64,000 nucleotides of DNA. It comes from an uncultured bacterium. Its GTDB lineage: Bacteria; Patescibacteriota; Minisyncoccia; Phycocordibacterales; Phycocordibacteraceae. This document shows positions 4,119 to 56,677 of the stretch, one piece after another (within the stretch, counting starts at the first letter, position 1; every line of letters starts with the position of its first letter). The position numbers were made by a program, and so were the translations under genes. The stretch is taken from positions 38,787-102,786 of the forward strand of contig CAVXAH010000001.1 in assembly GCA_963759775.1 (NCBI GenBank), written 5' to 3'. The notes under the pieces were generated by a model. The model worked only from the letters and a program-made list of their open reading frames with translations. It was not told the DNA's origin and searched no databases.

Positions 4119-4131
4119 CCCCGTTAGAGGC
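4119..4131. repeat. solo copy of the CCCCGTTAGAGGC terminal-repeat motif (family A) between rplQ and rplM
   Basis: 13-nt identity with the left end of the 55758-55876 element; no partner within 150 bp. Confidence 0.4.
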
Positions 4132-4147
4132 TCCACGATATAACCCT

Positions 4148-4549
4148 ATGACATCAACCATGACATCAACCCCAAAAACCAAAGCCTCTAATGGGGTGCA
4201 AGAAACGAGCTTCACCATTGACGCAACGAACCGCACACTTGGCCGTGTGGCAAGCGAGGCGGCGCATGCGCTTCTTGGGAAGCGTTCCGTGCACTTCGCA
4301 AAGCATATTCCACTTCCCGTGAACGTCACAATAGAAAACGTCGCCAAGCTCCACCTCCCCGAGCGCCGCACAAAAGGAAAGGTGTACCTCTACTACACCG
4401 GTTATCCAGGCGGCCAGAGGGCAGTACGCATGGACGAATTCATCGCTAAGAAGGGCATTGAAGAAGCTGTTCGTAAAACGGTAGATGGCATGATTCCTCG
4501 TAACAAGCTCCGCCGCGAGCGCATGAAGCGCCTTACGGTCACCAAATAA
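4148..4549 (+). CDS. rplM: 50S ribosomal protein L13
   Basis: 133 aa, L13 core similarity (NRTLGRVASE..., RMIPRNKL). Confidence 0.9.
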   Translation: MTSTMTSTPKTKASNGVQETSFTIDATNRTLGRVASEAAHALLGKRSVHFAKHIPLPVNVTIENVAKLHLPERRTKGKVYLYYTGYPGGQRAVRMDEFIAKKGIEEAVRKTVDGMIPRNKLRRERMKRLTVTK

Positions 4550-8465: not shown

Positions 8466-9554
8466 ATGGCTAAGGACTACTACTCAGTGCTGGGAGTTGA
8501 TAAGAAGGCAAGTACGGACGATATTAAGAAGGCGTTCCGCAAACTTGCTCACAAATACCATCCGGACAAGGGCGACGGGGACGAAGCGAAATTTAAAGAA
8601 GTAACGGAGGCGTACAGCGTCCTTGCGGACGAAAAGAAGCGTCGCGAATACGACACGTACGGTCAGGCATTTGCGGGTGGAGGAAGACGCGGTGGCGCTC
8701 CCGATTTTGGTGGTTTTGATTTTAGCCAGTTCCAACAGGGGTTCGGTAACGGTGGCGTGGAGTTTGACTTCGGAGACGTGTTTGAAGGATTTGGGGACAT
8801 TTTTGGTGGCGGGCGCCGCAGCAACCGCGCGAAGCGCGGTCGTGATATTTCTATTGACCTTGAAGTCACCTTCAAAGAATCCATTTACGGTACGAAGCGC
8901 ACTGTTTTGATAGCGAAAATTGCGACTTGCACCTCCTGCGCAGGCACCGGAGCCAAGTCTGAAACAGAAATGGAGACCTGCAAAACTTGCAATGGTTCAG
9001 GTCGTGTCCACGAGGCAAGGAATTCTATTCTCGGCCAGTTCACGAGCGTGCGCACCTGCGTTATGTGCGACGGGCTCGGAAAGATACCGAAAGAGAAATG
9101 CGCGGAGTGCAAAGGTCATGGCGTTCATCGCAAAGAAGAGGAAATTCAGGTGATGATCCCCGCTGGTCTTGAAAACGGCGAAATGATTCGTCTGCCTGCG
9201 CAAGGCGAAGCAGTGAAGGGCGGTTCTGCCGGTGACCTTTATGTAAAAGTGCATGTTGCGCCACACCCTACGTTTAGAAAGGACGGCAGCAACCTCGTTA
9301 TGGAGCTTCCCGTGAAGCTTACCGACGCGCTCCTTGGGAGCACGGTCTCTATTGAGACACTTGAAGGTAAAACACTTGAGGTGAAGATTCCACAAATGCA
9401 GCGCGCCGAAGAAATACTCCGTGTGAAAGGGAAGGGTGTGTCGTATGAAAACGGACGCGGCGACTTGCTTATCCACGTGCACGCTGCACTCCCGCACAAG
9501 CTCTCCGGTAAAGCGAAGAAGGCGGTAGAGGACCTGAAAGCAGAAGGACTCTAG
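8466..9554 (+). CDS. dnaJ: chaperone DnaJ
   Basis: J-domain with HPD (KYHPDK), G/F-rich linker, four CxxCxGxG zinc-finger repeats, C-terminal domains. Confidence 0.95.
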
Positions 9555-9701
9555 AACCCATTTCAAAATTTCGACACGAGCGGGGCACTGTCTCCGAGGG
9601 GGTCGCGAAGTACGACGGTGCGAGCGTTTCAGGCGTTTTTTGAGCACAAAAATGCCGTACCCGAGAAGGCAGTATCCCGTGAGTGGGTTTTGAAATGGGT
9701 T
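9555..9701. repeat. about 147-bp intergenic element with 14-bp terminal inverted repeat AACCCATTTCAAAA (family D, copy 1)
   Basis: about 85% identical to 51107-51246; internal conserved hairpin ggcgtttttt-gagcac-aaaaa(a)cgcc with a G-U compatible substitution. Confidence 0.7.
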
Positions 9702-9737
9702 CTAAAAGCCGCACCCGCGGTGAGTTAGAATATATGC

Positions 9738-10259: not shown

Positions 10260-10302
10260 TCAGCCCGCCTCTTGTGCTCCGTGGTATATTTTTGTCATGA
10301 AT

Positions 10303-10417
10303 CCCGTTAGAAATCGCGGACGCCGTCGAAGCCGTAAAGCGGGTTTTTTTACTAACCTTAATCGGATAGGGTTCGGTCGTGCAGTTACCTGCGTGTCCGC
10401 GTCCTATTTCTAACGGG
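10303..10417. repeat. MITE-like element (family A), TIR CCCGTTAGAAAT / ATTTCTAACGGG, abutting the tyrS ATG
   Basis: 12-bp perfect TIR extended by a covarying stem (atcgcggacgc / gcgtgtccgcg); internal TAATCGGATAGGG core shared, in inverted orientation, with 49096-49198. Confidence 0.7.
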
Positions 10418-11670
10418 ATGAACATCGCTGAGGATTTGAAGGCGCGAGGGCTCGTGGAGCACTCATCTGCTGATGTCGCCACCATTCTTGGCACCCCGCG
10501 TACGGTGTACCTCGGCATAGACCCCACTGCCGACTCACTCCACGTCGGGCACTTAGTTCCCATTCTTTTTATGAAGCGGCTTGCCGCGGCAGGTCATAAG
10601 CTTGTCTTTTTGGTTGGGGGCGGTACCGGCATGATTGGCGATCCGAAAGAGAAAGGGGAGCGCGTACTGCTTGATGAGAAAACCATAAGTAAAAATACGG
10701 AGGCTCTCAAAAAACAACTTGAAGACATTTTGGGACGCTTGCCATTCAAAATGGTAGACAACGCCACATGGCTCTCTAAGGTCCGTCTTGTGCCATTCCT
10801 TCGCGACATAGGAAAACACTTCACCGTAAACGACCTCGTAAAGCGCGACCTCATAGCAAAACGCCTTGCAACTCCGGATGAGAGTATTTCGTACACTGAA
10901 TTCACCTACTCACTTCTCCAGGCCTATGATTATTTGGAATTAAATACTAAATACCACTGCGATCTTCAGGTTGGGGCTTCGGACCAATGGACGAACATTC
11001 TTTCGGGTGTTGACCTTATCCGCAAGAAAAAGGAAAAGAAGCGTTCGCGCTCACGGTTCCTTTGGTTACTGACGCGAGCGGCAAAAAGTTTGGGAAATCC
11101 GAAGGAAATGCAGTATGGCTTGACCCTGAGAAGACATCTCCGTACCAGTTCTATCAGTTTTGGCTTGGCTTACCGGACGAAGGCATAGAAAAGTATCTCA
11201 AGATTTATACTACTCTTCCGCTTGGAGACATTGAGGCACTTATGGAGAAGCATCGCGCGGCTCCACAAGAGCGCGAGGCGCAAGAGGTGCTTGCGCGTTT
11301 CGCGACTGAGTCGTTGCATGGCCCAGCAAATACCGCAGAAGCGGCGGCGGCAACCGATGCGCTTTTTGGCGGACGCTCTCTTGAAAGCCTTAGTCGCGAC
11401 GAGCGTGAGGCGGTCATACGAGAAGTCCCATCCCTCGCACTTTCAAAGAAAGAACTTGAGGCAGGGTATCCACTTACTGAAGCACTAGTGGGAGGTAAGC
11501 TTGCTTCCTCAAAGTCCGATGCGCGCCGACTTATAGAAGGGAAGGCGGTTACTCTAAGCGGGCTGTTAATCGAAAATGCAGATCAAAAACTCTATCCGGG
11601 CGACCTCAGTGGCGGCCTCGCACTCATTCGCAAAGGCAAGCGCGATGTGCTCGTTTTGGTTTTGAAATAA
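10418..11670 (+). CDS. tyrS: tyrosyl-tRNA synthetase, apparent frameshift near 11030-11040 (A-run)
   Basis: class I HIGH motif (LHVGHL), KFGKSEGN (KMSKS-like), C-terminal S4 domain; pieces 10418-11188 and 11062-11670 colinear with TyrRS; start taken as MNIAEDLKARGLVE at 10418. Confidence 0.9.
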
Positions 11671-18004: not shown

Positions 18005-19425
18005 GGCTTGTTTTTACAAAAGGAACGATAGACGCCGCCCCCAAGGGTTATGTACGCGTGCGGATCACTCACGAACCAAAAGGAACGAGGAAGTTTGTTC
18101 GCGAGGGCGCCGTTGAGTGGCTTGAGCTCGGTGCAGGAAAACCAACGGACATGAACTACCGTAAGTTTATGGTGCTGTGCCGATCTGTTGTTCAAACCGC
18201 TAAAGGAAATAAAGCAAGAAAAATTGCTATTCAGTTTGACCGTACTCCTGAATTTTTTGAAAATTTGCAGAACCATACGCCTGAAGAAATTTCACGTGTC
18301 GCGGCAGAGAATTTTGAGATGGCGAACTTTGACTGGAATGTCTTTAAAACGAAACCAAAAGAGGGGTGGAATACGGTAGAAGAAATCCTCCTCTACGGCG
18401 GGTCTTCAAAGTCAATTGAGAAGGCTGCGCAAGTGGGTCAGATGGTGGGGCAGGGCGTAAATGCCTGCCGGGCACTTGCAAACACCCCAGGGGGCGACAT
18501 GACTCCCCTGAAGCTCGCCAAAGCCGCAAAAGAGGCTGTAAAAGGGCTTGCCGGTCAAGGTAACTACCCTTGGGCAAGAAAGAGATGGAAAAGCTTGGTA
18601 TGGGGGCTCTTTTGGGGGTCGCAAAAGGGTCGTCCGAGGAGCCTACATTTACCGTCATGGAGTACCGAGCTGGCGGCAAAGAAAAGCCCAGTCGTGCTTG
18701 CCGGTAAGGGAGTTACGTTTGATAGCGGCGGACTCAATTTGAAACCCTCCGGAAGCATTTATGAAATGCATATGGATATGTCGGGTGCCGCTTCTGTCAT
18801 ACACGCCGTTGCGCTCGCCGCTCGTCTCAAACTCAAAAAGAATGTCATCGGACTTCTTCCGTCCGTTGAAAACATGCCGGGCAATAGCGCGTATCGCCCC
18901 GGAGATGTGCTCAAATCTCTTTCTGGAAAAACTATTGAGGTCTTGAATACGGATGCAGAGGGTCGCCTGATTCTTGCCGATGCACTTACGTATGCAAAAC
19001 GTTTCAATCCGTCAGTTGTATTTGATGTAGCGACACTCACTGGTGCAGCAGTCTCTGCGCTTGGTCTTCATGCAAGCGGACTCATGACGCGCGACGACAA
19101 AGTCGCGAAAAAAGTGGAGGAAGCGGGCGAGGAGTCGGGAGATTATGTGTGGCGTCTCCCGCTTTGGGATGAATACGAAGAAGCGATAAAGGGAACGTTC
19201 GCTGATATCACTAATTCCGCAACGGGCCCGTACGCGCGTTCTGGCGGCGCAATAGAGGGCGGCATGTTCCTCTGGCAATTTGCAAAAGAACTCGGAGTGC
19301 CCGTGGGTGCATCTTGATATTGCGCCACGGATGACTGCGGCGCCGGGAGACGAGCTTGCGAAGGGTGCGGCCGGAGCCCCCGTGCGACTCCTGGTAAAAT
19401 TTATAGAACAATGGCCGTCACACTA
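18001..19425 (+). CDS. pepA: leucyl aminopeptidase (M17 family), with clustered apparent frameshifts (near 18550, 18575, 18690, 19300)
   Basis: NTDAEGRL signature and VLAGKGVTFDSGG; alternative frames encode KKEMEKLGMGALLGVAKGS and the true C-terminus WVHLDIAPRM...VRLLVKFIEQW ending at 19425. Confidence 0.85.
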
Positions 19426-19548
19426 AACAGTGTTGCCGCACGCACGATTACGAGAGTGGTACTATTTAAAAATGACTTTCCCTACACGAAAATCCCCAAG
19501 TCCTAATGACGGTGCGGCCAAAGCCGCGACACCGTTTTAGTGTGTCGG
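19415..19548. repeat. MITE-like element (family B), TIR CCGTCACACTAAAC / GTTTTAGTGTGTCGG, filling the pepA-scpA junction
   Basis: each TIR is the exact reverse complement of the opposite TIR of the GIY-YIG element at 22259-22542; the left TIR contains the pepA stop codon. Confidence 0.75.
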
Positions 19549-19551
19549 CCA

Positions 19552-21309: not shown

Positions 21310-22257
21310 ATGGACACTCCAGAACTCCAGGCACTCGCGAAACATGCGCGCTTTATGAAAGAAGCCGGTATCGCGCTCCTCCTCTCTTGTGTGGTTCTTG
21401 CGGCATTTCTTTTTATTCCGCTTACTTCACGCTCAGAAGATACGAACGATGTGCTGATCACAAAACCCGTTGCAATAAACGCATATGCGGACATTCCGCT
21501 TCAAGCGGAAGCCGCGATTGTGTACGACTTGGTAAGCGAGGAAACCCTTTTTGATAAAAACGCAGATGCGCAGTTGCCACTCGCTTCGCTCACAAAACTC
21601 CTCACGGTGTACGCGGCGCTTGCAGAAATTGCACCCGGAACACCAATCACTATTTCAAAAAGCGCCTCGGCAAGTGAGTACCCGCGCCTTTTTGCTTCCG
21701 GCGAAACGCTCTCGCTCGCTGACCTCTCGCGTCTCACGCTTACCGGTTCTCTAAACGATGGTGCCGCCGCAATAGCGGAAACCATAGCCGCGCGCAAACA
21801 AATATCCATGCACGCGATGCTCGCGAGTGCTGCGACGGCGCTCGGTCTTTCACAAACGTACGCCGTAAACGGAAGCGGACTTGATGAGAGCCTGACTGTT
21901 TCTGGCGCATATGGCTCGGCACACGACGTGGCGCTTCTCGCAGGTGCGCTCGTCAAGCGTGCTCCCACCATTGCTTCTGCAACCACCGAATCCTCCGCAA
22001 CTGCTGCCAATGAGTCCGGAAAAACTTATACCGTAAACAATACAAATCCGACTGTTATTTATACGGCACGACTTCTCCTTTCAAAGACCGGATTCACCGA
22101 CCTCGCCGGCGGAAACTTGGTGCTTGTCTTTGATGCCGGAATTGACCATCCTGTTGCGGTTGTCGTGCTCGGCTCCACCGAAAAAGACCGCTTCACCGAT
22201 GCAACTGCACTTGTTGCCGCTACCCTTGCGCACTTCTCAGGAGTTTCTTCTCTATGA
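21310..22257 (+). CDS. D-alanyl-D-alanine carboxypeptidase (S11 serine peptidase, PBP5-like)
   Basis: SxxK (ASLTKLLT), SGN-like (NGSGL) and KTG (KTGFT) motifs; N-terminal membrane anchor. Confidence 0.8.
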   Translation: MDTPELQALAKHARFMKEAGIALLLSCVVLAAFLFIPLTSRSEDTNDVLITKPVAINAYADIPLQAEAAIVYDLVSEETLFDKNADAQLPLASLTKLLTVYAALAEIAPGTPITISKSASASEYPRLFASGETLSLADLSRLTLTGSLNDGAAAIAETIAARKQISMHAMLASAATALGLSQTYAVNGSGLDESLTVSGAYGSAHDVALLAGALVKRAPTIASATTESSATAANESGKTYTVNNTNPTVIYTARLLLSKTGFTDLAGGNLVLVFDAGIDHPVAVVVLGSTEKDRFTDATALVAATLAHFSGVSSL

Positions 22258-22258
22258 C

Positions 22259-22542
22259 CCGACACACTAAAACAACCTTGCGAGACGACTATGTATTACG
22301 TATATATTTTGCAAAGTAAGAAAGACGGGAAGTTTTACACGGGATACACCACTGATTTACGACGTCGTCTCGCAGAACACACGACAAGAGCCTCAATCTC
22401 AACGCGCTCGCGACTTCCTCTGCAACTGTTATATTACGAAGCATATATGTCGCAGGCCGACGCAAAATCTAGAGAGTATCGCCTTAAGACTTCTCAAGGC
22501 GCGCGCACTGCATTAAAGCGACGAGGTCGTTTAGTGTGACGG
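22259..22542 (+). mobile_element. TIR-flanked GIY-YIG gene unit (family B putative autonomous copy)
   Basis: imperfect 15-18 bp TIRs CCGACACACTAAAAC / GTTTAGTGTGACGG immediately flank the ORF; right TIR overlaps the ORF stop and the mraY start; same TIR family as 19415-19548. Confidence 0.55.
22291..22539 (+). CDS. GIY-YIG nuclease superfamily protein (YhbQ/UPF0213-like)
   Basis: 82 aa, YVYIL..K.GK.YTGYT.DL.RRL.EH then Y.E motifs. Confidence 0.8.
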   Translation: MYYVYILQSKKDGKFYTGYTTDLRRRLAEHTTRASISTRSRLPLQLLYYEAYMSQADAKSREYRLKTSQGARTALKRRGRLV

Positions 22543-23606
22543 GTATGATTAGTCTCGCCGCTCAAGTTTTCATCCCATCTGCAATCGCGTTCGCGCTTGG
22601 CATCGTCTTTGCGCCACTTCTCGCTGGAATTTTATATGAAAAGAAAGCGTGGAAAAAGAAAGCGGGGAAGGGTAATGGTATGGGCGGCGGTGGCACTCCT
22701 ATTTTTGATGAACTTCATAAGATACGGGAGGTTTCAACGCCACGCATGGGCGGCATTTTAATCTGGGCATCGGTTTTAGCGACCGCATTTGGAATCTGGC
22801 TCCTCGCTCGAACCGTGGGTGGTGTTTTTCTTGACCTCAACTTCATAGACCGAAGCGAAACGTGGCTCCCCATTTTTGCACTGTTTGTTGGGGCCATTGC
22901 GGGACTCTTTGATGACCTTCTAGAGATATCTTCAGGCACGGGAGGTCTCTCTCTTCGCGGAAGACTCGCCATTGTAGCGGTAATGGGGCTTGCTGCGGGA
23001 TGGTGGTTTTATACAAAACTCGGCGTTACGGCTCTCGGCATTCCTTTCGGGAATCCGCTTGAACTGGGCGCTCTTATCATTCCATTTTTTGCTCTGGTAA
23101 CCCTCGCTATTTATGCGGGCGGGACAATTGATGGAATTGACGGACTTGCGGGGGGAGTTTTTGCAATTATTTTCATGACGTACGCCGGCATCGCCTTTGG
23201 AGAGAGCCAGTTCGCACTCGCAACCTTCGCTGCAACGTGTGCAGGCGCGACACTGGCTTTTCTTTGGTTCAACATCCCACCCGCGCGCTTCTATATGTCG
23301 GAAACCGGCAGTATGGCTCTTACGCTTGCGCTTGCCATGACCGCGTTTGCGGCCGATAACCTTGCAAAGGGCGTGGGGGTGTTCGTGCTTCCTCTCGTCG
23401 CGCTTCCACTCACCGCAACGGTCATTACGACCCTGCTTCAGGTGTTTTGGAAAAAGTCCTTTCATACCAAACTTTTCATGGTCGCGCCTATTCACCATCA
23501 TTTTGAAGCTCTTGGTTGGCCACCCTATAAAGTCACGATGCGCTACTGGGTGATTACGATCATTGCCGGTGTTTTGGGCCTTTCAATCGCGCTCATTTCC
23601 GCGTAG
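22536..23606 (+). CDS. mraY: phospho-N-acetylmuramoyl-pentapeptide transferase
   Basis: DD motif, DGIDGLAGG, HHHFE motif (PIHHHFE), 10 TM helices. Confidence 0.9.
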   Translation: MTGMISLAAQVFIPSAIAFALGIVFAPLLAGILYEKKAWKKKAGKGNGMGGGGTPIFDELHKIREVSTPRMGGILIWASVLATAFGIWLLARTVGGVFLDLNFIDRSETWLPIFALFVGAIAGLFDDLLEISSGTGGLSLRGRLAIVAVMGLAAGWWFYTKLGVTALGIPFGNPLELGALIIPFFALVTLAIYAGGTIDGIDGLAGGVFAIIFMTYAGIAFGESQFALATFAATCAGATLAFLWFNIPPARFYMSETGSMALTLALAMTAFAADNLAKGVGVFVLPLVALPLTATVITTLLQVFWKKSFHTKLFMVAPIHHHFEALGWPPYKVTMRYWVITIIAGVLGLSIALISA

Positions 23607-30823: not shown

Positions 30824-31267
30824 CTATTCTGCCTCAACGATTATTTGGAACTTGCCGAAACTCTCTCCTGCAGAGACTGGGACATCAAACGTGCCGACTT
30901 CTTTGATTGGCTTTTCAAGGCGAACTACGTCTTCTGGGAGTTCAATGTGAGCCTGCTCACGAACTGCATCGAGAATCTCTGTCTCCCCCACTGCGTCGTA
31001 GAGGTGCCCTTTCTCGTTCACCTTCATCTTGATTACAATGCGCTTCTCGCCAAGCGTCTCCAAGCTCTGGGCTACCAAGGTTCCCTGCATTTTGCGCTGT
31101 ACGTCCATCTGCTTCTTCCTGAGCTCTGCGTTCTTGCTAGCCGCCGGAGTAGCAGGAATGGCCATTTTCTTAGGGATAAGGAAGTTCAGGCCATGCCCGT
31201 CCGACACCGTGATGGTGTCGTGCATTCGGCCTGTGTCCTTCACATCTTTCGTCAATATAACTTTCAT
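30824..31267 (-). CDS. rplI: 50S ribosomal protein L9
   Basis: MKVILTKDVK..G..GD...V..G...NFL N-terminal domain, 147 aa. Confidence 0.9.
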   Translation of the reverse strand: MKVILTKDVKDTGRMHDTITVSDGHGLNFLIPKKMAIPATPAASKNAELRKKQMDVQRKMQGTLVAQSLETLGEKRIVIKMKVNEKGHLYDAVGETEILDAVREQAHIELPEDVVRLEKPIKEVGTFDVPVSAGESFGKFQIIVEAE

Positions 31268-31268
31268 A

Positions 31269-31404
31269 CCCTGGGGTACAGCATGGCATTGCTCCTAAGT
31301 GGCTAGCCGTGACGTAGAAATATAGAGATTATTAAATCAATACCGCACGAGGAGCAGAGCGGACATCGGAGCAAAAAGCCACGATGCCATGCTGTCCCAC
31401 GGGG
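31269..31404. repeat. MITE-like element (family C), 21-bp TIR CCCTGGGGTACAGCATGGCAT, directly upstream of the rplI start
   Basis: right end ATGCCATGCTGTCCCACGGGG is a near-perfect reverse complement; second copy at 53369-53500. Confidence 0.7.
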
Positions 31405-31446
31405 CATAGTCAGGCTATCCTAACCGTTTAAACGCCAAAAGGCAAC

Positions 31447-47362: not shown

Positions 47363-49095
47363 AGTGAGGAGGGCGTAGTGGCACGGTCGGGCGGTACGTC
47401 GTAGTAATTAATCAGGAAGTGAGTCAGGTTCATGAAGGTAGAAGTGAGTGTTTCGGATGCGTAGCGAACCCCTTGCGGATCGTTGGTGTAAAGGAGAATG
47501 ATAAACCGCGGCGCGTACGAAGGAAAGTAGCCGAAGAAGGAGTGGAAGTACCTATCTTTGTAGTACCCGCCTCCGGGCATGGTGAGCTGGGCAGTTCCGG
47601 TCTTTGCCGCAACAGACATAGACGCTATTTTTTCCTTTCCCTGCGCAAGGTCAAAGTCAACGACGTGAGTAAGCATTCCCGCGACCGTGCGCACTGCCTC
47701 CGGAGAAAACACCTCCACTGTCTCCGGTGGCTCAAGAGTCCGCGTGATGCCGGTATCAAGCTTAATGGCGCGCGTGAGGTAGGGCCGAGCCATTGCCCCG
47801 TCGTTTGCGAGCGCACTTAAGGCACTTATCATTTGCACCGGTGTTACCGCGATACCTTGGCCAAATGAGGCGGTGTCGTAACCTACCTGCTGCGGCCTTG
47901 AGATGTTTTGGAGAAGACTTCCCGTTTCACTTGGAAGGTCAATGTGTGTCTTCTCGCCAAAGAGGGTCGTGAAGTACGTTCGGAGTCGCTCTTTGCCGAG
48001 TTGTCGCCCAACCCAGGAGGCGCCGAGGTTCAAAGATTCCGACAAAATTTGCTGTACCGCTACCCTTCCGCGCGCCTTGAGGTCAAAGTTGCAAATAGTG
48101 TAGGTATCCACGTCCATACAACCCGTATCGTTATAGGTTGAGTCGGCGGTTATCGCATCCGCATCAAGGCCAGCGGCCACAGTGAGTGGCTTCACTATGG
48201 AGCCAAATTCATACACATGCTCCACAAGCGGATTCCCGAGAACCGCCGGGTCAACACTTGAGAGATCGTTCGGGTTGTAGGTCGGGACCGTGAGAAGAGC
48301 GAGAACGGCTCCTGTGCGCGGGTCCATAATGATTCCGCCTGTTTCTTTGCTCTTAAATTTCGCGTGCACTGCTTTAATTTCACTCTCAAGCCGAGTCGCA
48401 ACCGCGGGCTCAATGGTGGTTACCACATTGCCCTCACGTACGTTTTTTGTATCAATGAGTAAATCCCCCGCGCCTGAGAAAAGGGTTGCGAAGAAATTTT
48501 TATAAAGAGAGTCACCGCTGCGCGCGAGTGTGTGGTCATAGTACGACTCAAGACCTGTTCGTCCGGAAAGACTGTCGCCGCTACCATAGGAAACGATGCC
48601 AACTGACTGTGCCGCAAGCGTCCCTCCAGGATACTCTCTCCAGCGCTCACGAAGCACTATGACGCCGGGTATTTTAAGCGCGGCGAGCGCGCGACCTTCC
48701 TCTTCCAAAAGATGATGCGCTATCTCAACATACACACGCTCGGACCGTAGAGATGCGGCGAGGAATACCTCACGGTCAATGGTAGAGGTGGCGAGTGCGG
48801 TCGTAAGGGAGTTGTAAGCGGCTTCGGGGTCTTTAAGGGTCTGGGGATTCATTGCGAGCAAAAACCCCGTTTGAAGGGTCGCGGCTGAAATGAGTGCTCC
48901 GTCCTTGCGAGTGAAATAAATAGACCCGCGATCAAAAAGTCCACTTATGCCGCCGGAAAACTGCCGCTCGGCCTTGAGCGCATACGTTTCTCCCTGCACG
49001 ATTTGGACAATGTAGAGGCGTCCGGCGATAAGGATCGCGATGATAAGAATTCCGAGAAATACAAGTCGGATACGGAGTCTAAACTGCGCGCGCAT
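47359..49095 (-). CDS. ftsI: penicillin-binding protein (transpeptidase; FtsI/PBP3-like)
   Basis: SxxK (SIVK), KTGTA motifs, N-terminal TM; dcw position before murF. Confidence 0.9.
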   Translation of the reverse strand: MRAQFRLRIRLVFLGILIIAILIAGRLYIVQIVQGETYALKAERQFSGGISGLFDRGSIYFTRKDGALISAATLQTGFLLAMNPQTLKDPEAAYNSLTTALATSTIDREVFLAASLRSERVYVEIAHHLLEEEGRALAALKIPGVIVLRERWREYPGGTLAAQSVGIVSYGSGDSLSGRTGLESYYDHTLARSGDSLYKNFFATLFSGAGDLLIDTKNVREGNVVTTIEPAVATRLESEIKAVHAKFKSKETGGIIMDPRTGAVLALLTVPTYNPNDLSSVDPAVLGNPLVEHVYEFGSIVKPLTVAAGLDADAITADSTYNDTGCMDVDTYTICNFDLKARGRVAVQQILSESLNLGASWVGRQLGKERLRTYFTTLFGEKTHIDLPSETGSLLQNISRPQQVGYDTASFGQGIAVTPVQMISALSALANDGAMARPYLTRAIKLDTGITRTLEPPETVEVFSPEAVRTVAGMLTHVVDFDLAQGKEKIASMSVAAKTGTAQLTMPGGGYYKDRYFHSFFGYFPSYAPRFIILLYTNDPQGVRYASETLTSTFMNLTHFLINYYDVPPDRATTPSSL

Positions 49096-49198
49096 CCCGT
49101 TAGAAATAGAACACGAACACTCTCGAAGTGTTGTGCCCTATCCGATTAGGTCCAATAATCATATGCCTCATCATATCGTGTTCGTGATTTCTAACGGG
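49096..49198. repeat. MITE-like element (family A), TIR CCCGTTAGAAAT / ATTTCTAACGGG, abutting the ftsI start codon
   Basis: 12-bp perfect TIRs, covarying sub-terminal stem (agaacacgaaca / tgttcgtgat), internal CCCTATCCGATTAGG core inverted relative to 10303-10417. Confidence 0.7.
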
Positions 49199-49213
49199 AC
49201 GCATTGTACAAGA

Positions 49214-51096: not shown

Positions 51097-51106
51097 CGTC
51101 AAAATC

Positions 51107-51246
51107 TATTTCAAAACCTCAACACGAGCGGGGCACTGCATCCGAGGGGGTCGCGAAGTTGGGCGGTGCGAGCGTTTCAGGCGTTTTTTGAGCACAAAAA
51201 ACGCCGTACCTGAGGAGGTAGTGGCCCGTGAGTGGGTTTTGAAATA
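51107..51246. repeat. about 140-bp element with 12-bp TIR TATTTCAAAACC (family D, copy 2), ending 4 nt from the lysK stop
   Basis: about 85% identity with 9555-9701 including the perfect hairpin ggcgtttttt-gagcac-aaaaaacgcc. Confidence 0.7.
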
Positions 51247-53320: not shown

Positions 53321-53368
53321 ACGTGTGCTGTTTGCGGGCATTGTACGTGCTCTGCTCTGAAGCGCAAG

Positions 53369-53500
53369 CCCTGGGGTACAACATGGCATCGTGTCTTTAG
53401 CTCCAACGATCAAAAGCTATAAACCTTTTGTTTTTATGTGACGTCTGGCAACTGAAATAAACGTAGGACACGAAGAGTAATGCCATGTTGTCCCACGGGG
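53369..53500. repeat. MITE-like element (family C) copy 2, TIR CCCTGGGGTACAACATGGCAT / ATGCCATGTTGTCCCACGGGG, 48 nt upstream of greA
   Basis: TIRs match 31269-31404; internal sequence differs but keeps sub-terminal complementarity. Confidence 0.7.
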
Positions 53501-53524
53501 CAAGCCCATAAGGAAAAATCGATT

Positions 53525-55226: not shown

Positions 55227-55493
55227 TTATCCCGTTAGAGATAGGAAGCGCTTGAGCCGGTTTTTGAGATAACGCTTACCCATTCCCGTTTTGAGGTACT
55301 TTTCACGCGCAAAAGCATCTTCGGCCGTTTGAGATGCTTCGTAATATATGAGTGTGAATGGACCACGTCCTTTAGTGTACGCCACTCGATTTGAATTGTG
55401 CAGGGCCAAGCGCTTCCGAAGATCTTTCGTGCAGCCGGTATACCATCGACCGTCACTTTTAGCTTGGAGAACGTACACATACACAAACGACAT
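55227..55493 (-). CDS. GIY-YIG nuclease superfamily protein (YhbQ/UPF0213-like), paralog of 22291-22539
   Basis: 88 aa, VYVYVL....G.WYTGCT.DL.KRL..H and YYEA motifs. Confidence 0.8.
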   Translation of the reverse strand: MSFVYVYVLQAKSDGRWYTGCTKDLRKRLALHNSNRVAYTKGRGPFTLIYYEASQTAEDAFAREKYLKTGMGKRYLKNRLKRFLSLTG

Positions 55494-55506
55494 AATCTCT
55501 AACGGG
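55231..55506 (-). mobile_element. TIR-flanked GIY-YIG gene unit (family A putative autonomous copy)
   Basis: perfect 12-bp TIRs CCCGTTAGAGAT / ATCTCTAACGGG lie 1-3 nt outside the stop and start codons of the GIY-YIG ORF; same TIR family as three MITE-like copies. Confidence 0.6.
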
Positions 55507-55758
55507 ACGCGATAATACTCGTCTCAAAGAATCTGCGCACGGAATAGGAAAGCAGTGCGGCGAGTGCCCCAAGAGTGCTGTACAGAAAGGGTGGATGTAT
55601 ACCCGGGACATAGTAGAGAATGTCAGCGAAAAGCCCTATAGCAAGCACCGAAAGTGGCGAGACGATTCCCGCAAGTAGCGCGAGCAGTCCCGATACGACT
55701 GCTGGAAATACAAAAAGTGAGGCGATGGCAGACAAAATAATGGTCGCGCGGATGTTCA
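55499..55758 (-). CDS. mreD: putative rod shape-determining protein MreD (small polytopic membrane protein)
   Basis: position after mreC; hydrophobic 85-110 aa; annotated from the GTG at 55758 because the longer ATG start (55834) lies inside the repeat element. Confidence 0.45.
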
Positions 55759-55876
55759 CCCCGTTAGAGGCAGGTCGCGACCCAACATCAACTCGAGATC
55801 GTTGGGTGAAAAAGAGATTTTTACCGTAATTCATATTTAACTCTTAATCGAACGGGACCGCGGCCTCTAACGGGGG
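55758..55876. repeat. MITE-like element (family A), CCCCGTTAGAGGC / GCCTCTAACGGGG, overlapping the mreC 3' end and mreD 5' end
   Basis: imperfect about 20-bp TIRs including a covarying extension (aggtcgcgac / ggaccgcggc); internal ctcttaatcgaacggg resembles the family core. Confidence 0.6.
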
Positions 55877-56677
55877 TACTGGGAGTGTAAGGCCCGTGTC
55901 TTTCAGGACTACCCACGTTATTGAAAAAGGATTTTGGACAGGGGTAATCAAAAGCGTGGCGGAGGGAGACGCTGGATCTGTTTCCACGTGCGTGACGGTC
56001 CCAACGAAAAGTGCACCGGGACCTGGGGCGTATACGCCGTCGCCAACACCAATGGCGGCACTCTTTGAAACCTGCGCGGTGAATGTTCCCCCACCCGCTC
56101 CTAGAATTGAAAGTGCGGTTCTGTTTTTCCCTACCCACCCGGGCGTTCGCATGCCAGAGGAAGAAAAGAGAGTGATGCGGGCAAATGACGACGTGAGGGA
56201 CGTGACGAGGCCGAGCGGCGTGCCGCCACGGCCAAAGGCCTCCATGCCAAGGGTTACACCTGCGTCTTCACCCGCATTCACGACAAGCGTGTCATACGGA
56301 GCCTGTGGAGGTCGGGCGAGTACGCCCGCGGCAATCCCCGATGGAGACTCAGCCCCTTTCCCAATAAGCGCTTCCAAATCGCTTACTCTTTCTGAGAGGG
56401 TTCGGTTCTCCGTAGATCGCTCGGCATTTTGGAGCATGAGATGTTCATTTTCTGCCCTAAGCTTCTTTGCATCCACAAACCCAGACATCAATGAGTCCGC
56501 CTTTTCTGTTATAGAATCCCCTGCTCGAAAAAGCGGAGTCGCTATTTTAAGGAAAAAGTCCGGCAGAAGAAGCCGGATGGCAAATAAAGCAAGTACGAAC
56601 ACGAACACCACCGCTCCCGCGGTGACCCCCGAAGGAGAGAGTAATGCGTTACGCCTCAGGGAGTATCTCGTCTTCAT
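55844..56677 (-). CDS. mreC: rod shape-determining protein MreC
   Basis: N-terminal TM, coiled coil, MreC beta domains; internal Met start chosen. Confidence 0.85.
   Translation of the reverse strand: MKTRYSLRRNALLSPSGVTAGAVVFVFVLALFAIRLLLPDFFLKIATPLFRAGDSITEKADSLMSGFVDAKKLRAENEHLMLQNAERSTENRTLSERVSDLEALIGKGAESPSGIAAGVLARPPQAPYDTLVVNAGEDAGVTLGMEAFGRGGTPLGLVTSLTSSFARITLFSSSGMRTPGWVGKNRTALSILGAGGGTFTAQVSKSAAIGVGDGVYAPGPGALFVGTVTHVETDPASPSATLLITPVQNPFSITWVVLKDTGLTLPVPPLEAAVPFD

Follow-up and report, generated by a model that had tools for sequence, protein, structure and literature searches.

The palindrome at the junction of mreC and mreD in an uncultured member of the Patescibacteria, here called E5, is in our judgement probably a gene-less, non-autonomous copy (a 'mini') of a group of very small mobile elements that carry a GIY-YIG nuclease gene and inhabit Patescibacteria; that the nuclease drives their movement is an inference. 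When the palindrome was first noticed, as one of a 'Family A', the link to the nuclease was missed: that family is the gene-less form of the GIY-YIG nuclease element. The repeats and their family, insertion as judged by empty sites, target duplications, a preference for start codons and the decay of full copies into minis are established below. The role of the nuclease is inferred from its being the sole gene within the repeats, from two nuclease variants that go with two repeat types, and from the precedent of the Ssn nucleases.

The palindrome and the ends of mreC and mreD

In the 64-kb stretch of DNA that was analysed (the window), the minus strand encodes, in order, mreB, mreC, a small membrane protein at the mreD position, an 88-aa GIY-YIG gene and PBP2 (Table 1). 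The two arms of E5, CCCCGTTAGAGGC and GCCTCTAACGGGG, are complementary at 13/13 nt (100%), with 91 nt between them. Pairing of these terminal inverted repeats (TIRs) had been named as a test in the original prediction; folding as both RNA and DNA bears it out, giving one long hairpin on either strand. Energies on the two strands are -51.9 and -50.7 kcal/mol for RNA (z = -5.4 and -4.1, with 0/200 shuffles equally good) and -28.1 and -29.1 kcal/mol for DNA (z = -5.8 and -5.0). An Rfam search of the window yielded 2 tRNAs only, the match nearest to E5 having E = 0.41, under the gathering score, and the interior of E5 has no significant BLAST match either to the GIY-YIG gene or to minis of other genomes.

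Table 1. Positions of the features of the window discussed in the text
Feature	Position	Strand	Remarks
E1, mini, between rplQ and rplM	4119..4196	.	13-nt TIR identical to that of E5
E2, mini, before tyrS	10301..10419	.	right end gives AT of tyrS ATG
Gene-less mini with second repeat type	about 19413-19550		on scpA start codon; flanked by CAATG direct repeat
Second GIY-YIG element	22257-22544		carboxypeptidase-like gene to mraY, ATGA junctions
Second GIY-YIG gene, 82 aa, 51% identical to first	22291-22539		repeats ACCCGACACACTAAA / TTTAGTGTGACGGGT
E3, mini, before ftsI	49092..49202	.	adjoins ftsI ATG
GIY-YIG nuclease gene, 88 aa, intact	55227..55493	-	PF01541, E = 3.3e-14, residues 4-70
E4, gene-carrying, between mreD and PBP2	55230..55507	-	TIR TCCCGTTAGAGAT / ATCTCTAACGGGA; missing in relatives
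mreD-position small membrane protein, 86 aa from GTG 55759-55757	55499..55759	-	end-to-end alignment with 82-84 aa orthologues
E5, gene-less (mini) element of the CCCGTTAGA family	55759..55875	.	perfect 13-nt TIR, hairpin z-scores, missing from orthologous junctions
E5 left TIR arm CCCCGTTAGAGGC	55759..55771	+	reverse complement ends in G of mreD GTG
Alternative in-frame mreD ATG 55834-55832 with 25 extra element-encoded residues MNYGKNLFFTQRSRVDVGSRPASNG	55760..55834	-	
mreC, 277 aa from ATG	55844..56677	-	Pfam MreC domain stops 19 residues short of C-terminus
MreC C-terminal tail PPLEAAVPFD, element-encoded, TAA stop 55846-55844	55844..55875	-	homologues differ
E5 right TIR arm GCCTCTAACGGGG	55863..55875	+	reverse complement encodes (P)PLEA of MreC

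The mreC frame takes its final 10 codons and its stop from E5, where the minus strand reads ccc ccg tta gag gcc gcg gtc ccg ttc gat taa, and the reverse complement of the right TIR region does form the end of a reading frame closing in PPLEAAVPFD-stop, as had been claimed. In the alignment, MreC of the window matches its relatives as far as ...LPV and then switches to this tail; the suggested comparison of C-termini supports the claim, in that homologues end in A(S/T)STxP and not in PPLEAAVPFD. Since the Pfam domain ends before this region, the core of MreC is untouched.

The other arm was correctly described as meeting the GTG of mreD, whose first base is the last G of that arm, and the longer ATG-started frame (55834, 111 aa) does run through E5. 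Its ATG lies 9 nt past the mreC stop, and the 25-residue N-terminal extension has no counterpart in orthologues; the relatives' proteins of 82-84 aa align with the GTG-started form of 86 aa, as the proposed mreD comparison would have it. The TAG stop of mreD falls inside the TIR of the next element, E4. A Pfam search gave no MreD match for this protein, whose name rests on position only, and NCBIfam offered no useful name for it or for the nuclease. The earlier idea of a tolerated insertion that rewrote both termini is supported, with the refinement that for mreD the change is probably an ATG to GTG start, or a 25-aa element-encoded extension, and not a replacement.

Which mreD start is used is undecided. 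Placement of the ATG 9 nt after the mreC stop would favour re-initiation, and the GTG sits at the base of the stem, which ribosomes translating mreC would be expected to open. An argument from Shine-Dalgarno motifs was dropped: among all window ORFs of >= 200 aa, tetramers of this kind precede 4/44 gene starts, compared with 6/44 at an internal control position, and because they are not enriched, translation starts in the source genome seem not to rely on them.

Empty sites in relatives

Three syntenic relatives (L086, L087 and L088), with MreC 49-56% identical and the gene order proS-mreB-mreC-small ORF-PBP2-greA-lysS, have neither an element nor a GIY-YIG gene at the mre locus; their mreC ends in ccATGA, overlapping the start of an ORF of 82-84 aa. 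A metagenome pattern scan for the MreC C-terminus returned 27 loci, of which 20 (about 15 sequence types) have the same plain ccATGA junction and likewise no GIY-YIG gene, bringing the empty mreC|mreD junctions to about 18 syntenic relatives. The remaining seven, all of one type (for example L089), carry a different mini of the CCCGTTAGA family exactly at mreC|mreD, reading ccATGA|CCCCGTTAGAAAT...ATTTCTAACGGGG|TGAtgcgcgg, which relative to the empty sequence ccATGAtgcgcgg shows a TGA duplication. In the relatives mreD and PBP2 lie 0-6 nt apart and E4 is missing.

From the relatives' empty sites and the insertion of L089 at the same junction it follows that E5 is an insertion, and, on the strength of these alignments, the mreC|mreD junction has been hit at least twice, independently. 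The original prediction had left room for a conserved junction element that does not move; syntenic relatives with a plain ccATGA and no element refute it.

E5 has no target duplication: on the minus strand its flank towards mreC is GTAC and that towards mreD is TGAA. The mreD side carries TGAACATC, the sequence expected if insertion took place at A|TGAAC. Missing next to mreC are the duplicate and some 18-22 nt that the ancestral sequence had, which leads us to infer a flank deletion. The insertion history of E5 as inferred here thus includes a deletion that has not been observed.

A repeat family within the window

Nine exact copies of the core CCCGTTAGA stand in the 64-kb window, all within five convergent pairs, E1 to E5; the E5 repeat is not a product of chance, every core copy in the window being paired. 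One arm of each of E1, E2, E3 and E5, all four of which fold as hairpins, adjoins with its outer end the start codon of the next gene (TCTAAYGGG, then ATG or GTG), the right end of E1 adjoining a GTG in the rplM frame. E4 lies 250 nt from E5, and its arms bracket the GIY-YIG gene. E1 and E5 have in common the exact 13-nt repeat and the motif ACATCAAC, at unrelated loci, and E2 and E3 are homologous in their subterminal parts and have a common interior motif, TAATCGGATAGGG. ATGAA stands on both sides of E2 (a TGAA duplication); target duplications are missing at E5, E4 and E1. Essential genes with element-rewritten ends in the window are mreC, mreD, rplM, tyrS and ftsI.

The minis that rebuild a GTG (E1, E5 and those of L020 and L089) each hold an ATG in frame with the downstream gene. 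Possible N-terminal extensions of 15-25 residues result (at 4148-4199 in E1, 2437-2555 in L020 and 3114-3160 in L089), for which chance is not excluded. The tyrS gene (10379-11670) appears as two overlapping ORFs, one (269 aa) ending in an aberrant tail behind a KKKEKK run, the other (202 aa) beginning at 11062, which suggests a frameshift or an assembly error.

The GIY-YIG element in other genomes

The catalytic-type residues of the 88-aa nuclease are conserved and invariant in the alignment, where Y5, Y7, Y18, G20, R28, H32, E64 and N78 do not vary. The protein has > 2500 homologues at 70-80% identity, mostly in Patescibacteria, and matches 7089 cluster representatives (E <= 1e-3); its best PDB sequence match is UPF0213 BH0048 (1ZG2), with E = 4.6e-11. 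On a Kaiserbacteria contig the gene lies between pheS and pheT, and on another contig between a TraG-like gene and a glycosyltransferase; both elements are bounded by ATGA|AT(A/C)C(C/T)GTTAGAGAT ... ATCTCTAAC(G/A)G(T/G)AT|GA.

A survey of 80 genome loci together with the window (1.21 Mb, mostly Patescibacteria) found 117 and 122 core motifs that form 118 convergent pairs. Spacing is 260-300 nt in 73 of these pairs, which carry the gene; about 35-40 pairs are shorter and gene-less, with a mode of 100-120 nt, like E5. Gene-carrying copies in the 80 loci all have open frames (70/70), and no other ORF and no larger element was found inside the repeat pairs of the 1.21 Mb. The full element measures about 275 bp and holds a gene for a single-domain GIY-YIG nuclease of 86-95 aa between TIRs of 11-17 nt with the core CCCGTTAGAG ... 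CTCTAACGGG. These TIRs overlap the last codons of the nuclease (SLTG-stop) and, in long forms, also the first (MNPVRD), the repeats being held in the nuclease's own codons in 70/70 copies. Viral contigs, scanned with phage carriage in mind, gave no relatives.

Some loci come from bins labelled as Omnitrophota, Bdellovibrionales and others outside Patescibacteria, which may reflect binning errors or horizontal transfer. At L011 (5064 and 9701), L024 and L027 (10260) and L025 (2577) an element or mini stands directly upstream of a similar gene start (..gaactNNatgacacacac..), in L011 that of a 1413-codon ORF; L024 and L027 are 100% identical, flanks included. Either a larger unit that is itself repeated or a favoured target gene may lie behind this similar context.

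Target duplication and preference for start codons

With the 9-nt core and one further base at either end counted as the element, 43/114 have identical 4-nt flanks, compared with 11.6 expected under a permutation control that keeps the site preference. Among elements without TGAA the figure is 15/54 (1.5 expected), with duplications that include TGAG, CGAG, TTTA, TAAA, TCAA, CTGG and TTGA. At 27 of the 43 rebuilt empty sites the duplication coincides with bases 2-5 of an ORF of >= 70 codons, for which the random rate is about 1%, and this position implies a cut after the first base of the start codon. The left copy reads ATG AAT CCC GTT AGA GAT, the MNPVRD start of long nuclease forms, and the right end reads GGA TGA A, a nuclease stop that overlaps the rebuilt host ATG (or GTG). 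Judged by the flanks, insertion makes a 4-nt duplication and strongly prefers A|TGAA, often in the ATGA overlap of an operon.

Duplications of 2 nt (GA) or of 4 nt as ATGA were rejected: more elements fit a duplication of 4 nt that borders the core and one further base. E3 and a related mini at another locus (L034_3565) have the common flanks ATGCG...ATGCGCGC at non-orthologous genes. They were rejected as orthologous insertions, their downstream genes being unrelated; some of the flank identity may be element-borne or a target preference of a sub-lineage, and part of the counted duplication may therefore belong to some elements.

A second nuclease with its own repeats

The window holds a second GIY-YIG element, flanked by a stop codon (in ctATGA) and by the start codon of mraY (in GGGTATGA), and a mini with the same second repeat type (Table 1). 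Since this second nuclease has distinct repeats and a mini of its own, nuclease variant and repeat co-vary, as reported for Ssn.

Origin of minis and signs of recent activity

At the mreD|PBP2 junction of L089 stands an element of 61 nt, flanked by a CGAG duplication, in which the initial 30 nt of a full element (repeat plus ATGACGTTTGTGTAC) and its final 30 nt (CTCAAGCACTTTCTAATCTCTAACGGGG) survive; judged by these retained ends, it is a clear internal deletion of a gene-carrying element. Other minis have unrelated interiors, heterogeneous across genomes. The sequence common to E2 and E3 and the repeat common to E1 and E5 suggest that minis propagate. Some nuclease gene copies within a genome are 95-99% identical, compared with a median of 69% between genomes. 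At 6537-7756 of L017, at least 5 gene-less elements of the CCCGTTAGA family lie within 1.3 kb, some nested or sharing arms, like BIME-type REP arrays.

Relation to known systems

Of the systems already known, Ssn/NTS comes closest. The concept of a small GIY-YIG gene between cognate repeats dates from a publication of 2025 (Chenal et al. 2025, PMC11893778). Ssn proteins, defined by cd10448, are single-domain GIY-YIG nucleases that bind a hairpin and cut ssDNA next to it, cognate hairpins flanking their own genes; the NTS-ssnA-NTS arrangement of Neisseria is proposed to modulate transformation and recombination, and neither Patescibacteria nor the Candidate Phyla Radiation is named in the report (PMC11893778). 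Our elements resemble this system in a single-domain GIY-YIG protein of about 90 aa (here 88 aa), in a gene flanked on both sides by a cognate inverted-repeat sequence with gene-less copies elsewhere in the genome, and in the possession by each nuclease variant of its own cognate repeats. Unlike Ssn sites, their arms lie about 250 nt apart, pair across the gene and overlap its codons, and they show target duplications, empty sites and a preference for start codons. The SRM consensus HGTCWY..YYVSBRH..WNVSBRG..RNCYNB has 0 matches within 300 nt of 71 genes and 3 in the 1.21 Mb overall. Because it is unmatched, and because the best solved relative is UPF0213 (cd10456) and not a named Ssn, membership in Ssn is not shown. 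New with respect to the Ssn report are the arms in the gene's own termini, the evidence of insertion, the start-codon/ATGA target and the Patescibacteria hosts. Full-text literature searches found no description of these elements.

Pairs of insertion sequences and MITEs (for example Correia/NEMIS) are similar in their TIRs, short target duplications and gene-less derivatives that share the ends, and their insertions likewise alter gene ends and are co-transcribed. E5 shows three marks of a MITE, namely TIRs, a same-ended gene-carrying element (E4 and 70 elsewhere, with an internal-deletion intermediate in L089) and an orthologous site from which it is missing; it has no target duplication of its own (43/114 elements of the family have one), and its mobilisation in trans by the nuclease is an inference. 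The differences are that the sole protein is a GIY-YIG nuclease and not a DDE, serine or tyrosine transposase, that the full element is only about 275 bp, and that the target is a start codon. REP/BIME sequences with RAYT (REPtrons) and IS200/IS605 elements likewise place a nuclease gene between palindromic repeats dispersed among genes, with hairpin ends that suggest recognition of single-stranded DNA, and the mini arrays of L017 add to this likeness. However, RAYT and TnpA are HUH/Y1 enzymes, whereas the gene here is GIY-YIG with no Y1/HUH gene between the repeats, and IS200/IS605 elements lack terminal inverted repeats and make no duplications.

The free-standing GIY-YIG homing genes of T4-like phages (Seg, Mob) are also small GIY-YIG genes between operon genes, but those proteins have DNA-binding domains and long specific targets, without inverted repeats, duplications or minis. 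The criterion for a homing endonuclease is not met by a protein of only 88 aa found in contexts as varied as pheS|pheT, TraG-like|glycosyltransferase and mreD|PBP2. Rickettsia palindromic elements (RPEs) are comparable in that palindromic repeats become tolerated protein-coding sequence; they differ in inserting in frame inside genes, with no nuclease gene in the repeat and no start-codon preference.

A proposed mechanism and its rivals

In the mechanism that we propose, the GIY-YIG nuclease would move both full and mini copies, probably recognising the two-repeat stem; neither catalysis nor mobilisation in trans has been shown. An element would insert directly after the A of a start codon, at A|TGAA, with a 4-nt duplication. 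The left copy would then give the nuclease gene its start codon and the host's translation context, and the last base of the element (A or G) together with the right copy would rebuild the host ATG or GTG, overlapping the nuclease stop. In the lineage of the window, a mini, E5, would have landed on the mreD start and a full copy, E4, between mreD and PBP2. At E5 the duplicate next to mreC, together with some 18-22 nt from the 3' end of mreC, would later have been lost; MreC now reads 10 codons into E5, and mreD starts at the rebuilt GTG or at the in-frame ATG within the element. To our knowledge, GIY-YIG nucleases hydrolyse DNA; we know of none that joins strands, nor of any for which transposase activity has been shown. 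Typical enzymes of this kind leave overhangs of 1-2 nt and not of 4 nt, which counts against the nuclease as the mover.

There is some support for the idea, to which we give little credence, that a conventional transposase, so far unidentified and encoded at another place, moves the repeat pairs, with the GIY-YIG gene as cargo or addiction module: duplications of 4 nt are what DDE transposases, for example those of the IS5 group, typically leave, and GIY-YIG enzymes are without known strand-transfer activity. Yet in 1.2 Mb the repeat pairs enclose nothing larger and no other ORF, nuclease codons contain the repeats in 70/70 copies, and the second nuclease variant, with its own repeats and mini, points to cognate co-evolution. 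The repeats could also be host-domesticated nuclease target sites, as proposed for Ssn/NTS, their spread a by-product and the element no longer selfish. The architecture is analogous to NTS-ssnA-NTS, and the nuclease, which is intact, shows strong conservation, with 70-80% identity across classes; even so we regard this as quite improbable, since insertions truncate or alter essential genes (mreC in the window, mreD in L089), element positions are not kept among relatives, and target duplications with a start-codon preference fit a parasite better.

It is unlikely, though a real possibility, that a full GIY-YIG element at mreC|mreD lost its gene and left E5 behind in place, in which case E5 would not be a mini mobilised in trans. 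The 61-nt remnant of L089, which keeps both gene ends, is a case of this kind, and mini interiors are heterogeneous across genomes; against it, no gene remnant is detectable in the 91-nt interior of E5, and what E1 and E5 have in common (the repeat and ACATCAAC), like the sequence common to E2 and E3, suggests propagating minis. Neither the GIY-YIG gene nor any mini of another genome is similar to the E5 interior, so that E5 may either have transposed as a mini or have decayed in place. We attach almost no weight to a chance palindrome or to a cis-regulatory structure, RNA or DNA, conserved in the mre operon: the strong hairpin would lie within the mRNA, but the structure is missing from about 18 orthologous junctions, and these empty sites refute it; in addition it has no Rfam match, its interior is not conserved and all cores in the window are paired.

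Implications

Returning to the reading of E5 as a gene-less copy of a mobile GIY-YIG element, we suggest tentatively, with slightly more doubt than confidence, that these elements form an undescribed class of prokaryotic DNA transposons, including the smallest autonomous one (about 275 bp), with a GIY-YIG nuclease as sole protein, insertion at start codons or ATGA overlaps, and mobilisation of minis. If the nuclease does move them, this would be a new chemistry of bacterial transposition, hydrolytic GIY-YIG instead of DDE, HUH, serine or tyrosine, and an extreme lower limit for the size of an autonomous element. Targeting of start codons and ATGA overlaps would let a parasite inhabit the packed, Shine-Dalgarno-poor operons of reduced genomes without breaking them. 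Since the elements rewrite the ends of essential genes, calls of start sites will be misled in thousands of Patescibacteria genomes, and cognate pairs of nuclease and repeat could widen the toolbox proposed for Ssn enzymes.

Other repeats in the window

A repeat of about 150 nt with inverted ends of 17-23 nt (TAGAACCCATTTCAAAA...) occurs at 9552-9704, after dnaJ, and at 51103-51246, between mraZ and lysS; the two copies are 88-90% identical and have no Rfam match. A palindromic family CCCTGGGGTACARCATGGCAT ... ATGCCATGYTGTCCCACGGGG, about 140-155 nt in length, has copies at 31266-31407 and 53357-53512, the latter filling the gap between PBP2 and greA, for which the relative L086 has only about 65 nt.
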